From a virus: a DNA stretch of 64,000 nucleotides. The translations under genes and the position numbers were made by a program. Shown here in pieces: positions 47,754 through 63,510 of the stretch. The notes under the pieces are model-generated. The model searched no databases and was not told the origin of the DNA. It saw only the letters and a list, made by a program, of their open reading frames with translations. The DNA lies in IMG/VR virus record IMGVR_UViG_3300025084_000007, positions 47,932-111,931 of that record; one strand, written 5' to 3'. The stretch's first letter is position 1; each line of letters starts with the position of its first letter.

Positions 47754-47960
47754 ATGTATAGCCTTTGGATTCACATACGAGCATTCGTTTCTGTTGTAGT
47801 GGTGAGTTGTGCTCACCCTGTCAACTGGGAGCAGTGTGTTCGTGTGGACCAATGGTTATTGCCTGAAGTTGTCCAAGGTTATAAACTATGGACAGGACAA
47901 GAAAAAATCTATCAAAACGAAAAGCAGTATCTAAATAGTCTGGAAGACTTAGAAGAGTAG
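47754..47960 (+). CDS. hypothetical protein
   Basis: SCAHPVNWEQCVRVDQWL. Confidence 0.55.
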   Translation: MYSLWIHIRAFVSVVVVSCAHPVNWEQCVRVDQWLLPEVVQGYKLWTGQEKIYQNEKQYLNSLEDLEE

Positions 47961-57538: not shown

Positions 57539-59835
57539 AAGAAATCCAGGTAATCAAGAGAGATGGGGTTAGTGAACCTCTGAATCTTGATAAAATTCAT
57601 GTGATGGTAGAGCACGCTTGCAATGGACTTGCTGGTGTGTCTGAGTCTCAGGTAGAAATGAATGCCAATCTTCAATTTTTTGATGGCATTAAGACTTCGG
57701 ATATTCAAGAAATCTTGATTCGTTCTGCTAATGATCTTATCTCATTGGATGCCCCTAACTATCAGTTTGTTGCTGCTAGACTTCTGTTGTTTAGTCTGAG
57801 GAAGGCAGTGTACAATGGTCATCCTGATGGACACCCTCCTTTGTTGGAGCATGTAGAGAAGTGTGTGTCTAGAAAAGTTTATGATGCATCTATCGTTAAA
57901 AAATATACAGAACAAGAGTGGGAGAAACTGTCCAGTTATATGGATCATGAACGGGATTTTCTGTTCACTTATGCTGGAGCACGACAGGTTGTAGATAAAT
58001 ACCTAGTGCAGGATCGCAGCACTGGGAAAATTTTTGAAACACCCCAGTACATGTATATGATGATTGCTGCTACGTTGTTTCAAGACGACGATAAGTTCTA
58101 TAGATTGGAATATATTAAAAAGTACTATGACGCAATCTCAAAACACCGAATCAACATTCCCACACCTGTCATGGCAGGGGTGCGAACTCCACTTCGACAA
58201 TTTGCTAGCTGTGTTCTTGTTGATGTCGATGACACCCTCGATAGCATCTTTTCTAGTGACATGGCGATTGGCTACTATGTTGCTCAGCGTGCAGGAATCG
58301 GTATCAACGCAGGCAGAATCCGTGGCATCAACGCTAAAATCAGAGACGGAGAAGTACAGCACACAGGTGTTGTTCCATTCCTCAAAAAGTTTGAAAGCAC
58401 TGTCAGATGCTGTACTCAAAATGGCATTCGCGGTGGATCGGCTACAGTACACTTCCCAATCTGGCACCAAGAAATAGAAGACATTATTGTTCTTAAGAAC
58501 AATAAAGGAACAGAAGACAATCGAGTGAGGAAACTTGACTACTCAATCCAAATTTCAAAACTTTTCTACGAGCGTTTCATCCAGAATGGAGAGATTAGCT
58601 TATTCTCACCGCATGATGTACCAGGTCTCTATGATGCTTTTGGTACTGATACATTTGACGCTCGCTATGTGGACTATGAATCAGATCAGTCTATTCCAAG
58701 AAAGACTATCGGGGCACAAGAACTTTTTCTCAGCATCCTAAAGGAGCGAGCAGAGACAGGTCGTCTCTATCTGATGAACATCGACCACTGTAATTCACAC
58801 TCGTCCTTCAAGGACAAGGTGAACATGAGTAACTTGTGTCAAGAGATCACCCTACCTACTGATCCTATTGGTCATATTGATGATCCTAAAGGTGAGATTG
58901 CTTTGTGCATTCTGTCTGCTATTAACGTCGGTAAACTGAAGAGTCTGGATGAACTGGATGACCTCTGTGACCTCGCTGTAAGGGGTCTGGATGCTCTGAT
59001 TGACTACCAGGAGTATCCTGTTGAGGCAGCAAAGCAGAGCACCGTTAACCGTCGTTCTCTGGGTGTTGGTTACATTGGTCTTGCACATTACCTGGCAAAG
59101 AATGGTGCATCATATGACAGTAACAAGGCACATGATCTAGTGCATAAACTCACTGAGAGGTTCCAATACGCTCTTCTATCAGCGTCGAATAGTCTTGCGA
59201 TGGAGAAGGGACCTTGCGGATATTTTGGTAAAACAAAATACTCAGATGGAATTCTTCCAATCGATACATATAAGAACGAAGTTGATGAGATTGTACCGAA
59301 TGATCTACAGTGTGATTGGGAGTTTCTTAGAGGTCGGATCCAAAAGTACGGTCTTAGGAACTCAACACTGTCCGCACAAATGCCTTCGGAGAGCAGCTCC
59401 GTTGTGTCAAACGCAACCAATGGAATCGAGCCGCCTCGTGCATTCTTGTCCATTAAGAAGTCCAAAAAAGGACCTCTTAAGCAGATTGTTCCCCAGTACA
59501 CTACCCTGAAGAACAACTACACCCTGCTTTGGGACATGCCTAATAATGATGGATACATTAAAGTGACTGCAGTAATGCAGAAGTTTTTTGATCAGGCAAT
59601 CAGTGGTAACTGGTCTTATAACCCAGAGAATTATCCTGATAATGAAGTACCTGTTTCTGTCATGGCAAACGATCTTCTTAATACCTACAAGTATGGATGG
59701 AAGACTTCTTATTATCAGAACACATATGATGCTAAGAAAGATGGTGATGAAGAACCATCGATTGAGAATGTTGACAACTTAATAACCGATCTGTTAGAAT
59801 CCGAGGAGGAAGACTGTGAGTCCTGCAAAATCTGA
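57535..59835 (+). CDS. nrdA: class Ia ribonucleotide reductase alpha subunit
   Basis: ATP cone VIKRDG, FASCVL, SNLCQEI, C-terminal CESCKI. Confidence 0.98.
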   Translation: MKEIQVIKRDGVSEPLNLDKIHVMVEHACNGLAGVSESQVEMNANLQFFDGIKTSDIQEILIRSANDLISLDAPNYQFVAARLLLFSLRKAVYNGHPDGHPPLLEHVEKCVSRKVYDASIVKKYTEQEWEKLSSYMDHERDFLFTYAGARQVVDKYLVQDRSTGKIFETPQYMYMMIAATLFQDDDKFYRLEYIKKYYDAISKHRINIPTPVMAGVRTPLRQFASCVLVDVDDTLDSIFSSDMAIGYYVAQRAGIGINAGRIRGINAKIRDGEVQHTGVVPFLKKFESTVRCCTQNGIRGGSATVHFPIWHQEIEDIIVLKNNKGTEDNRVRKLDYSIQISKLFYERFIQNGEISLFSPHDVPGLYDAFGTDTFDARYVDYESDQSIPRKTIGAQELFLSILKERAETGRLYLMNIDHCNSHSSFKDKVNMSNLCQEITLPTDPIGHIDDPKGEIALCILSAINVGKLKSLDELDDLCDLAVRGLDALIDYQEYPVEAAKQSTVNRRSLGVGYIGLAHYLAKNGASYDSNKAHDLVHKLTERFQYALLSASNSLAMEKGPCGYFGKTKYSDGILPIDTYKNEVDEIVPNDLQCDWEFLRGRIQKYGLRNSTLSAQMPSESSSVVSNATNGIEPPRAFLSIKKSKKGPLKQIVPQYTTLKNNYTLLWDMPNNDGYIKVTAVMQKFFDQAISGNWSYNPENYPDNEVPVSVMANDLLNTYKYGWKTSYYQNTYDAKKDGDEEPSIENVDNLITDLLESEEEDCESCKI

Positions 59836-60976
59836 ACTACAAGGAATGACCGTATTTAATAAGAACAAAGTGGACACCAAGAAGCAACCCATGTTTTTTG
59901 GTCAACCATTGGGAGTCCAACGATATGACTCCTTCAAATATCCTGTGTTTGATAAACTAACTCAGCAACAACTGGGTTATTTTTGGAGACCAGAAGAAGT
60001 ATCACTACAAAAAGATCGTGCAGATTACCAGACTTTATCGGAAGAGCAGAAGCACATCTTCACTAGTAACCTTAAGTACCAAATCATGTTGGATAGTGTA
60101 CAAGGGCGTGGTCCTGGGATGGCTTTTATACCTTACTGCAGTTTACCCGAACTTGAGTCAGCGATGACTGTATGGGAGTTTATGGAGATGATCCATAGTC
60201 GCTCCTATACCTATATCATTAAAAACGTATACTCAGATCCTACAGAAGTCTTTGATACTATCTTAGACGATGAGAAGATTCTCTCTCGTGCATCATCTGT
60301 TACTGAATCCTATGATGAATTTATTGATCATGCTCATCAGTATGACAATGGAACCATGTGGGAACTTGCAAACGAAGGTCACTATGCAGGGCAGTTTGAC
60401 CGTCGTGAACTGAAGCGTAAACTGTATCGTGCAGTTGCTAATGTCAATATCCTAGAGGGTATTCGTTTCTATACATCCTTTGCATGTTCGTTTGCTTTCG
60501 GTGAGAACAAACTCATGGAAGGTAGTGCAAAGATTCTTTCATTGATTGCTCGTGACGAGTCACAACATCTTGTACTTACTCAGAATATTTTGAATAAGTG
60601 GAAGGATGGTGATGATCCAGAGATGGAACTCATTTCTAGGGAGGAGCAATCTTGGGTAAAGAGTATGTTCCAGCGTGCCGTAGATGAAGAGAAAATGTGG
60701 GCAGAGTATCTGTTCAAGAATGGATCTATGATTGGTTTGAATGAGCGTCTGCTTCATAATTATGTGGAGTGGATTGCTAACCGTCGTATGAAAGCGATCG
60801 GTATCAAACCCATGTTTGACATTCCTGCTAAAAACAATCCGTTACCTTGGACGGAGCATTGGTTAAATAGTAAAGGCCAGCAAAATGCACCTCAAGAAAC
60901 GGAGATTGAAAGTTATGTCATCGGAGGAATCAAACAAGACGTTGAGGCAAATACCTTCGCAGGATTCTCCCTCTAA
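59816..60976 (+). CDS. nrdB: class Ia ribonucleotide reductase beta subunit
   Basis: FWRPEEV, EMIHSRSY, LEGIRFY, RDESQH and APQETE motifs. Confidence 0.98.
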   Translation: MSPAKSELQGMTVFNKNKVDTKKQPMFFGQPLGVQRYDSFKYPVFDKLTQQQLGYFWRPEEVSLQKDRADYQTLSEEQKHIFTSNLKYQIMLDSVQGRGPGMAFIPYCSLPELESAMTVWEFMEMIHSRSYTYIIKNVYSDPTEVFDTILDDEKILSRASSVTESYDEFIDHAHQYDNGTMWELANEGHYAGQFDRRELKRKLYRAVANVNILEGIRFYTSFACSFAFGENKLMEGSAKILSLIARDESQHLVLTQNILNKWKDGDDPEMELISREEQSWVKSMFQRAVDEEKMWAEYLFKNGSMIGLNERLLHNYVEWIANRRMKAIGIKPMFDIPAKNNPLPWTEHWLNSKGQQNAPQETEIESYVIGGIKQDVEANTFAGFSL

Positions 60977-61307: not shown

Positions 61308-61343
61308 TGCTACAATATAAATATAAGTGGTAGCGCAAGTTAC
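61308..61343 (+). promoter_or_regulatory. extended -10 (TGCTACAAT), late promoter (TATAAATA) and NtcA box GTA-N8-TAC
   Basis: TGCTACAAT 61308-61316; TATAAATA 61316-61323; GTAgcgcaagtTAC 61330-61343. Confidence 0.6.
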
Positions 61344-61349
61344 CATTTA

Positions 61350-61391
61350 CGTTCATCCCTCTTCGGGGGGACGCAAGTAAGTCGCGGAACG
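61350..61391 (+). ncRNA. glutamine-II (downstream-peptide)-like riboswitch, module 1
   Basis: P1 CGTTC/GAACG; P2 TCCCTC-TTCG-GGGGGA; junction CGCA; upstream of a DUF4278-like ORF. Confidence 0.7.
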
Positions 61392-61395
61392 GAGC

Positions 61396-61577
61396 CGTTC
61401 ATCCCATGCTAGAACTATTATTCTATACATCACTCACCTGTCAACAAGCCGATGCAATTATGTTTCGGATGAGAACAAATGAGAATATTCCCCCTGAATA
61501 TAAGGTGGAATTGATTGAGGTCATGAAGGAGTCAACTCCTGAATGCTACCCATGGGACGCACACGACTGAAGGAACG
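61396..61577 (+). ncRNA. glutamine-II-like riboswitch, module 2, with an ORF-sized P2 loop
   Basis: CGTTCA-TCCCATG...(142 nt)...CATGGGA-CGCAcacgactgaaG-GAACG. Confidence 0.6.
61406..61570 (+). CDS. 54-aa protein embedded in riboswitch module 2
   Basis: MLELLFYTSLTCQQADAIMFRMRTNENIPPEYKVELIEVMKESTPECYPWDAHD; GGAG at 61391-61394. Confidence 0.7.
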   Translation: MLELLFYTSLTCQQADAIMFRMRTNENIPPEYKVELIEVMKESTPECYPWDAHD

Positions 61578-61612
61578 GGGGAATAAACCACCCTATCTTC
61601 AGGAGTAACAAC

Positions 61613-61780
61613 ATGAACACATTACAAATGGTCAAGAAGCAGATCAATAAGGCATCTGCACTGCACAATGCACAGATCAGTCACACCTCATATCGTGGTG
61701 TTGAGTATGATACTCGTTGTGTAGAGTCTAAGGAGACTCACGGCACATTCTGTTATCGTGGTCGTACTTACAACAAATAA
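61613..61780 (+). CDS. DUF4278-family peptide (IF17 N-terminus-like)
   Basis: 55 aa with two YRG motifs (SYRGVEY, CYRGRTY); AGGAG RBS. Confidence 0.8.
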   Translation: MNTLQMVKKQINKASALHNAQISHTSYRGVEYDTRCVESKETHGTFCYRGRTYNK

Positions 61781-61802: not shown

Positions 61803-61827
61803 AAAGCACCCTTAGGGGTGCTTTTTT
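61803..61827 (+). terminator. Rho-independent terminator
   Basis: AAAGCACCC-TTAG-GGGTGCTTT followed by a T run. Confidence 0.85.
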
Positions 61828-62687: not shown

Positions 62688-62836
62688 ATAAAAAGAATTT
62701 GAAAGTTTTGATACATGACCTTGAGTTTGCAATCGCAGAACTTAAGGCAGAAGTTTACTCCGATACTGAATCCTACCTAGATAGTGAGAATGTGAGACGG
62801 GTATACACATACGATGACGACGGAGAAACCGACTGA
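62684..62836 (+). CDS. 50-aa hypothetical protein
   Basis: MNKKNLKVLIHDLEFAIAELKAEVYSD...; ATGA overlap. Confidence 0.6.
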   Translation: MNKKNLKVLIHDLEFAIAELKAEVYSDTESYLDSENVRRVYTYDDDGETD

Positions 62837-63272
62837 TGAAAATGAAAAAGAGTATGAAAACCCCTGGATTTTTGAAGGACAACCTTTTTTATCTAAGGAC
62901 ATTGACGATCATTATGGGTTTGTCTATTGCATTACAAATAGTCTCACTGGGAAAAGATACATCGGCCGAAAGTACTTTCACCAATTACGAAAGCCTAGAA
63001 CTGGAGGCAGGAGAGTTAAATCTGAAAGTGACTGGAAACGTTACTACGGAAGCAGTGCTGAACTTACTGAAGAACGCAAGCGGTTCGGGAATCTTGCCTA
63101 TAAACGGGATATAATTAGCCTACATAAATCCAAGGGACTCACAAACTTTGAAGAGACCCGTCAATTATTTCTCAATAATGTACTTACGGAGGCATTTGAA
63201 GATGGCACACCAGCATTTTACAACTCAAACATCCTTGGTCGGTACATGCGAAAAGATTACTTCAGACCTTGA
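62814..63272 (+). CDS. GIY-YIG family endonuclease (Seg-like)
   Basis: GFVYCITNSLTGKRYIGRK...ESDWKRYYGS...FYNSNI. Confidence 0.85.
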   Translation: MTTEKPTDENEKEYENPWIFEGQPFLSKDIDDHYGFVYCITNSLTGKRYIGRKYFHQLRKPRTGGRRVKSESDWKRYYGSSAELTEERKRFGNLAYKRDIISLHKSKGLTNFEETRQLFLNNVLTEAFEDGTPAFYNSNILGRYMRKDYFRP

Positions 63273-63322: not shown

Positions 63323-63475
63323 ATGAACACAGAGTTCTACGAGGCATTGAGCAATGAAGATGCGCTGTTCGATTTGTTTATCGATCAGTTACATCACTTT
63401 GCTGAATTGGAATTGGAAGAACGTAAGACTACCACTGGGTCAGTAGCTCAGATGGATAGAGCAATTCACTTCTAA
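63323..63475 (+). CDS. 50-aa acidic protein overlapping the tRNA
   Basis: AGGGAG RBS; MNTEFYEALSNEDALFDLFIDQLHHFAELELEERKTTTGSVAQMDRAIHF. Confidence 0.5.
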   Translation: MNTEFYEALSNEDALFDLFIDQLHHFAELELEERKTTTGSVAQMDRAIHF

Positions 63476-63510
63476 TGAATTGGTCGGGGGTTCGAGTCCC
63501 TCCTGACCCG
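63437..63510 (+). tRNA. tRNA-Arg(UCU)
   Basis: Acceptor GGGTCAG/CTGACCC, D arm GCTC/GAGC, anticodon arm ATTCA-CTTCTAA-TGAAT, T loop TTCGAGT. Confidence 0.95.

Follow-up and report, generated by a model that had tools for sequence, protein, structure and literature searches.

A small gene nested in a putative glutamine riboswitch with interlocked cores in cyanophages

The window analyzed in this study is a stretch of 64,000 nucleotides (positions 47,932 to 111,931 of IMG/VR record IMGVR_UViG_3300025084_000007), and all coordinates refer to it. It belongs to a T4-like cyanomyovirus, and the cassette described here is about 92% identical to that of Syn33 and S-RIM12. The cassette is located between nrdB (59816-60976), which is followed by a 139-aa ORF, and talC. 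It consists, in this order, of two glutamine-aptamer-like cores, a 54-codon ORF lying within the second core, a 55-aa gene with YRG motifs and an intrinsic terminator (61806-61827) that reads GCACCC-UUA-GGGGUGC followed by six U residues. All features of the cassette are on the + strand.

The window was scanned with Rfam at the gathering thresholds; the scan returned tRNA only and no riboswitch. At relaxed thresholds the first core alone became visible, with 24.8 bits against the gathering threshold of 35 bits for the Glutamine family (RF01739), and partial matches to Glutamine and Glutamine-II were placed at 61347-61399. The low score is explained by an insertion of 183 nt in P3 and P2, which the filters of the model cannot bridge. 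A Phe_leader match proved spurious, its terminator part being the terminator at 61806-61827.

Several further elements were recorded around the cassette. A T4-late-promoter-like TATAAATA is found at 61316-61323, upstream of the riboswitch, and GTA-N8-TAC at 61330-61343, between this putative promoter and the aptamer. The latter is the NtcA-box consensus, and from a box placed in this way repression would be expected. Where the first core contains a gene, TTGACA-17-TATAAT stands instead about 8 nt before CGTTCA. On the far side of the cassette, a 152-aa ORF (62814-63272) contains YGFVYCITNSLTGKRYIGRK, which, in the translation, resembles a GIY-YIG homing-endonuclease motif, and this ORF is followed by a tRNA gene (63437-63510).

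The first core opens with CGUUC plus A (61350-61355), the 5' strand of the outer P1; it is evident in the sequence, and the unconstrained MFE fold gives it 61573-61577 as partner. It is followed by the P2 hairpin UCCCUC-UUCG-GGGGGA (61356-61371), with a short loop that is geneless here, and by a segment (61372-61385) made of the junction CGCA, the E-loop strand AGUA (61376-61379) and the P3 5' strand AGUCG (61380-61384). Then comes the inner P1 hairpin of the MFE fold (61386-61401), composed of GGAACG (61386-61391), the loop GAGC (61392-61395) and CGUUCA (61396-61401); inside it lies the Shine-Dalgarno-like GGAG of the nested gene (61391-61394).

The P2 helix of the second core begins with UCCCAUG (61402-61408), whose last three bases are the start codon of the nested gene (61406-61408). 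The gene, taken from the ORF list, has 54 codons (61406-61570) and belongs to phrog_504. The P2 loop is thus 142 nt long and coding, and the 3' strand of the helix, CAUGGGA (61551-61557), is read as the codons Pro-Trp-Asp. The 3' half of the second core, CGCACACGACTGAAGGAACG (61558-61577), was located in the sequence; it starts with CGCACA, followed by the P3 3' strand CGACU (61564-61568), and also holds the stop codon UGA (61568-61570), the E-loop strand GAA (61569-61571) and the outer P1 3' strand GAACG (61573-61577). The ORF therefore ends in PWDAHD and then TGA at 61568-61570. An earlier, sequence-only reading of this DNA had placed CGTTCA at 61396-61401, TCCCATG at 61402-61408, CATGGGA at 61551-61557 and GGAG at 61391-61394, all correctly, and its claim that the ATG lies in the 5' strand of a helix while the last codons form the aptamer core agrees with both the sequence and the ORF translation.

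The nested ORF behaves as a genuine gene, as had been proposed. Values of dN/dS were 0.12-0.35 in three families (about 0.2 for the type found in the window), variability increased over the codon positions in the order 2<1<3, the loop length was a multiple of three in 322/330 long loops, and the AUG was invariant. Judged from these substitution patterns, the nested gene is under purifying selection. The 54-aa product matched phrog_504 (E=2e-30) and has invariant Cys, Glu and Trp residues, among them two invariant cysteines, C12 and C47. An AF2 model showed three short helices (pLDDT 83.6). Searches of Pfam, fold searches of the PDB and BFVD, and a protein atlas gave no family or fold match for the product.

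The window type, phrog_504, is one of several families of nested ORFs, which also include phrog_6471, phrog_13397 and an S-CAM9 type. In some phages, such as syn9, a gene in the first core is present in addition to that in the second; genes of 66-68 codons occupy the first-core loop of syn9, S-CAM1, S-SCSM2R and S-TIM4, and phrog_6471 is the first-core gene of syn9, S-CAM1 and S-TIM4. In the first-core genes, as in the S-CAM9 and S-WAM1 types, the stop codon comes earlier, within the P2 strand. All families have a hydrophobic N-terminal stretch and two cysteines about 35 residues apart. These shared traits suggest descent with the layout preserved; common descent is no more than suggested, because profile-profile comparison (hhalign) found no significant homology among ORF families A, B, C and D.

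The GGAG before the ORF was found in most of the ORF-bearing loci and in 0/3 ORF-less ones, in line with its proposed role. The linker was GAG(C/T) in 238/239 ORF-bearing junctions as against GATT, GAA or GAT in the 3 ORF-less junctions. A few ORF-bearing variants have a GTTC or GAAC linker: four IMG/VR loci (L311, L315, L345 and L362) combine it with the swapped inner P1 GCAACG/CGTTGA, and since GTTC or GAAC replaces GAG(C), they are without GGAG before the nested gene.

Two other variants of the layout were noted. In S-CAM1 (L092:726-942) and in L300 the nested ORF ends 16-18 nt short of the 3' half of the aptamer, with about 34 extra bases, and in this S-CAM1-type variant the next annotated CDS begins within the core; probably the downstream peptide has been annotated too long. 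In Synechococcus phage Sf-CH5 (L097:88-678) GGAACGGAGCGTT is directly followed by an annotated homing-endonuclease gene, which thus occupies the loop or a strand of the inner P1; the insert has CGTT at either end, and the ATG of the endonuclease lies 14 nt past the GGAG that in other loci normally stands before the nested gene.

Pairing in the enclosing P2 helix was counted over 126 distinct second-core sequences. Pairs 1-4 were paired in 126/126, pair 5 in 82%, and pairs 6-7 in about 37%; the start-codon bases concerned, U and G, are paired in some 40-50% of sequences. Compensatory changes occurred at 3 pairs, from U-A to C-G in 3 sequences and from C-G to U-A in 35+1 sequences, and the observed covariation was matched in 0/500 shuffles, a test that, like the Wilcoxon test used here, ignores kinship among the sequences. 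The sequence-only reading had described a perfect 7-bp TCCCATG/CATGGGA helix that takes in the AUG. Such a helix is indeed present in the window and in its MFE fold, but only 4-5 bp are conserved across relatives; because pairs 5-7 are not always paired, the 7 bp are a lineage-specific extension of a P2 of 4-5 bp, and pairing of the complete start codon is not a general feature. Usually the A is its one paired base, yet all three positions are invariant, the mostly unpaired U and G included.

The helix itself was kept in the homologues, with pairs 1-4 universal and covarying. From this covariation, the P2 helix is maintained by selection. The helices that enclose first-core ORFs covary too (UCUU/AAGA, UCUC/GAGA, UCCU/AGGA). 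The probability of P2 formation was 0.75 with native ORF interiors as against 0.38 with codon-shuffled ones, a difference whose formal p-value is inflated by kinship; the ORF interior is thus compatible with closure of P2, and more so than codon-shuffled versions. As in RF01739, then, a P2 hairpin with a covariation-supported helix is followed by ACG(G/C)A.

The end of the ORF carries a second constraint. Variability at third codon positions was 0.00-0.03 in the last five codons as against 0.14-0.27 in the interior, which is the pattern of frozen synonymous sites; on this comparison, the last five codons and the stop double as aptamer core. In 3 sequences the change from U-A to C-G in the helix converts the conserved WDAND to WGAND, so that RNA pairing has been kept at the expense of a conserved Asp.

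The second core had been described as an autonomous module, with CGUUC at 61396-61400 paired with 61573-61577. Neither part of this was borne out: the two cores are interlocked via a shared P3, and, by covariation and the MFE fold, the partner of CGUUC 61396-61400 is most likely GAACG 61387-61391, the two forming a hairpin with the GGAG in or beside its loop. In the outer P1, CGUUC 61350-61354 pairs with GAACG 61573-61577. In the shared P3, AGUCG 61380-61384 pairs with CGACU 61564-61568 (5 bp), and this helix covaries, being AAUCG/CGAUU in 10 loci, AUUCG/CGAAU in 1 (S-TIM4) and GGACGG/CCGCCC in the MA10 type, with a G.U pair in 3 loci. The AGUA strand of the E-loop occurs in the first core only and its GAA partner in the second only, so that the E-loop AGUA/GAA flanking P3, as RF01739 has it, is formed solely across the two cores. 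P1 of the family, CGUUC/GAACG with a flanking A, was found as two CGUUCA and two GGAACG, invariant in 126 sequences.

In the inner P1, GCAACG always occurred with CGTTGA (11 unique contexts, 0 discordant among 274), and in these variants the outer strands remain CGTTCA/GGAACG. A side-by-side fold is disfavoured by them, since it would give C.C and G.G mismatches. The unconstrained MFE of 61350-61578 was the nested fold, with -66.5 kcal/mol as against -63.9 kcal/mol for the side-by-side arrangement. A side-by-side tandem, in which each aptamer closes its own P1, was thus not what was found, and this topology was rejected on the inner-P1 covariation and the comparison of MFE values. The ORF-less relative ACG-2014f scored 41.1 bits with RF01739 (gathering 35), and its Rfam alignment joins the CGUUC of the first core to the GAACG of the second and places all that lies between in P3. 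As read from covariation and folding, the outer P1, shared P3 and inner P1 interlock, and the inner core is circularly permuted.

Downstream of the second core lies the putative expression platform. In the MFE fold an anti-SD stem is formed by CUGAAGG (61567-61573), which includes the stop of the nested gene together with the E-loop and outer-P1 strand, and by a 3' arm region (61597-61605) in which CUUCAG (61597-61602) overlaps AGGAG (61601-61605), the Shine-Dalgarno sequence of the downstream gene. This stem was present in the MFE of 114/114 unique platforms, with CGACUGAAGGAACG pairing the SD-proximal bases. Among loci with a UAA stop, CUUUAGGAG (CUUUAG) was found in 12/12. A 9-nt anti-SD within the ORF (61535-61543), a linked idea, exists in the window and is not conserved, the longest complement being 5.4 as against 5.1 for codon-shuffled versions.

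The gene that this platform would control (61613-61780) encodes 55 aa with two YRG motifs and starts 42 nt from the nested stop. It is DUF4278-like (Pfam DUF4278, E=1.5e-4, 22.5 bits, under the 25.3 cut-off) and belongs to phrog_545; presumably it corresponds to the N-terminal part of the GS-inactivating factor IF17. The locus thus has the form of a RF01739 leader, with an expression platform before a nitrogen-related or DUF4278 gene, the DUF4278 match being weak and below the cut-off. DUF4278 genes have been associated with glutamine riboswitches (PMC6316151). The start of the gene, AUGAAC (61613-61618), is complementary to GUUCAU (61351-61356) in the outer P1 5' strand and is paired with it when a longer transcript is folded (MFE); AUGAAC is kept in most relatives. 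This could be a further alternative pairing or a Met-Asn coincidence.

The split hairpin with an ORF-filled loop was found in 423 phage records, a recurrence well beyond chance, and the layout in at least 14 named phage genera. In loci fetched by protein or DNA similarity, 329/330 long loops hold an ORF whose ATG belongs to the helix's 5' strand and whose stop falls no more than a few bases from the 3' half, counts that are biased because this set was fetched largely with the ORFs as queries. Over 264 sources the loops were either up to 60 nt or 120-260 nt long, and intermediate loops (61-120 nt) numbered 2 of about 440. Because of the bias, an IMG/VR sample was drawn by the pattern of the 3' half alone, giving 111 usable stretches; this sample, and loci whose second ORF was not a query, lessen the bias and do not remove it. 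Among the 111 second cores there were 99 long, 10 short and 2 intermediate loops, and about 89% carried a nested gene. An ORF was present in 98/99 long loops, 91 of them by the first rule; the 7 apparent ORF-less exceptions were inspected, and all were CGTTGA variants with an ORF.

In ACG-2014f and MA10 the loop of this second core has the size of a tetraloop and holds no ORF, which makes the ORF an insertion/deletion polymorphism of the hairpin loop. A pattern scan of 185,579 species genomes detected the layout in no isolate cyanobacterium and in 7 contigs, all from MAGs of disparate taxa. These are most likely mis-binned phage, and on that reading the layout looks phage-specific. The glnA alignment of Weinberg 2010 covers the first core only and leaves the split core in the unaligned flank. 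The supposition that the arrangement had no prior account agreed with our search: no description of a gene nested in a riboswitch in this way was found in the searchable literature.

RNA-seq data from Syn9 infection contain the cassette only within long contigs. In one of four Syn9-infection runs the contig graph breaks at syn9 L102:661-751, and the short contigs there, which take in the end of gp196, the junction of the aptamer and the opening codons of gp197, show a word depth 10-20x that of the flanks. Such depth may come from a stable fragment with structure, from a processing product or from an internal start.

Taken together, these comparisons point to a type-1 (glnA-type) glutamine riboswitch with interlocked cores and a nested gene, in which the ligand-stabilized fold and translation of the nested gene would be mutually exclusive, a reading to which we assign a probability of about 0.6. 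The putative ribosome-binding region of the nested gene is made up of the GGAG of the inner P1 hairpin loop, the P1 strand as spacer and the AUG that ends the P2 strand; its last five codons and stop serve at once as the 3' strands of P2 and P3, the junction between them and the E-loop, with the stop in the CUGAAGG/CUUCAG stem that masks the Shine-Dalgarno sequence of the DUF4278 gene. A ribosome that initiates, elongates or terminates on the nested gene would melt the sensor, and the folded sensor would hide the start region of the gene. Since the start and stop regions are themselves strands of the sensor, we infer that the folded sensor and a ribosome on the nested gene could not coexist.

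Glutamine riboswitches before DUF4278 genes are ON switches in cyanobacteria (PMC6212724, PMC6316151), and high glutamine would therefore turn the DUF4278 gene on: CUGAAGG would be withdrawn from the anti-SD stem and the nested gene would be off. At low glutamine the DUF4278 gene would be off and the nested gene on. A terminating ribosome may also open the anti-SD stem. A fuller version, a two-way toggle in which one glutamine binding to the interlocked double aptamer switches the loop genes off and the DUF4278 gene on while the ribosome competes with the ligand, we hold tentatively, at somewhat less than even odds. A strong block of the ribosome is argued against by the conserved helix of 4-5 bp, which alone is a weak barrier, and by the ORF-less phages, which retain the switch. 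The absence of GGAG from some ORF-bearing variants also counts against the preferred reading. Regulation may be limited to later rounds of translation, because a first ribosome can already load while the 3' halves are still to be transcribed.

The strongest competitor holds that the nested genes are passive passengers, inserted in a peripheral loop that accepts any insert, much like the intron loops that house homing-endonuclease genes; the switch would control the DUF4278 gene only, the nested gene would be expressed with no meaningful control by glutamine, and the ATG in the helix would date from one ancestral insertion. The ORF-less ACG-2014f and MA10 retain an apparently intact switch, which makes the nested gene dispensable for sensing, and the hairpin loop, remote from where the ligand binds, tolerates replacement with binding retained (PMC6698751). 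In Sf-CH5 this riboswitch has taken up a homing-endonuclease gene, and ORF families that hhalign cannot relate significantly are compatible with several captures. Against passengers stand the start and stop codons, which in about 99% of the long loops fall on the core or on strands of the helix, in both cores and across families that no longer align, as well as the scarcity of intermediate loops (2 of about 440) and the co-occurrence of GGAG with the ORF. The anti-SD stem incorporates the stop codon, with which it covaries, the ORF interior favours closure of the helix, and the N-terminal hydrophobic stretch and Cys pair of all families suggest descent with the layout preserved. Simple passengers are for these reasons unlikely, at roughly one chance in five.

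An effect mainly of translation itself and not of the product, as with a leader peptide, would have the ribosome that stops at UGA 61568-61570 melt the anti-SD stem and turn on the DUF4278 gene, with the aptamer gating the traffic of ribosomes. The position of the stop within that stem in families A and C, its covariation with the partner strand and the downstream start 42 nt off speak for such coupling. The amino-acid sequence of the product is, however, under purifying selection (dN/dS 0.12-0.35, with invariant Cys, Glu and Trp), and neither the first-core genes nor the S-CAM9 and S-WAM1 types have their stop in the anti-SD stem, since it lies in the P2 strand. As the whole explanation this coupling is improbable; as an added effect it is compatible with a folded sensor that competes with translation of the nested gene.

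Less probable still is a decayed second aptamer, in which the split core stays unfolded and its halves are kept for the start region and for the C-terminus WDA(N/H)D. A coding 3' half and the lack of any Rfam riboswitch at the gathering thresholds would fit such decay. Compensatory changes in P2, P3 and the inner P1, one of which breaks a conserved Asp, speak against it, as do the frozen synonymous sites and the families that keep the same core although their ORF stops before it; moreover, the E-loop and outer P1 of the sole canonical aptamer require this very 3' half. The least probable account, that the insert is a structured non-coding RNA domain with an incidental open frame, finds several hairpins of the insert in the MFE fold and is contradicted by dN/dS far below 1, indels in threes, an AUG invariant even when unpaired and the maintenance of open frames of 50-68 codons in at least 4 families.

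The locus may be set beside known systems. With Glutamine-I (RF01739; the Synechocystis gifB/IF17 leader, PMC6212724) the locus shares CGUUCA, the hairpin, ACGCA, the AGUA/GAA E-loop, P3 and GGAACG, as well as a DUF4278/YRG gene downstream and an anti-SD platform consistent with an ON switch. It differs in that a whole gene replaces the P2 loop and overlaps the core, and in its Rfam score below gathering. From the 'tandem' arrangements described for Glutamine-I (PMC9481103) it differs by interlocked cores with a shared P3 and swapped P1 strands.

Glutamine-II (Downstream-peptide motif, RF01704; 6QN3) has the same ligand-pocket nucleotides, CGUUCA...CGCA...GGAACGG, and each single core here is a weak Glutamine-II match. 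In the crystal of Glutamine-II, strands are exchanged between two copies (6QN3, PMC6698751). The present RNA differs from it in having no pseudoknot hairpin P2, an E-loop and P3 common to the two cores, and a nested gene.

Group I and II intron ORFs (T4 td, I-TevI) likewise are genes in a dispensable loop of a folded RNA in a phage context, and there, too, folding and translation of the ORF interfere with each other. In contrast to these, the RNA described here would be a ligand sensor, its ORFs have 50-68 codons and are not endonucleases or maturases, and the ORF ends overlap the core. The search for intron features gave no self-splicing core, endonuclease or maturase: there was no match to an intron family, and the ORF is without a Pfam family. 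The tag frame of tmRNA, RNAIII/hld, SgrS/SgrT and leader-peptide attenuators are also cases in which one RNA is both structure and message and in which the position of the ribosome selects the structure, but in none of them does the frame lie within a ligand-binding riboswitch aptamer.

Riboswitch aptamers are usually seen as non-coding leaders, and the cyanophage cassette is a conserved and widespread phage version with translated-looking genes in the sensor, whose core nucleotides are partly coding. Because covariance-model scans miss split aptamers, censuses of phage riboswitches undercount them. The interlocked topology also bears on the dose response of 'tandem' glutamine riboswitches. 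If folding and translation compete as proposed, this would be a new logic, in which one ligand oppositely controls two small proteins, and the sensor may be reset by the ribosome. For infections of the main phototrophs of the ocean, the locus points to small phage proteins linked to the nitrogen status of the host.
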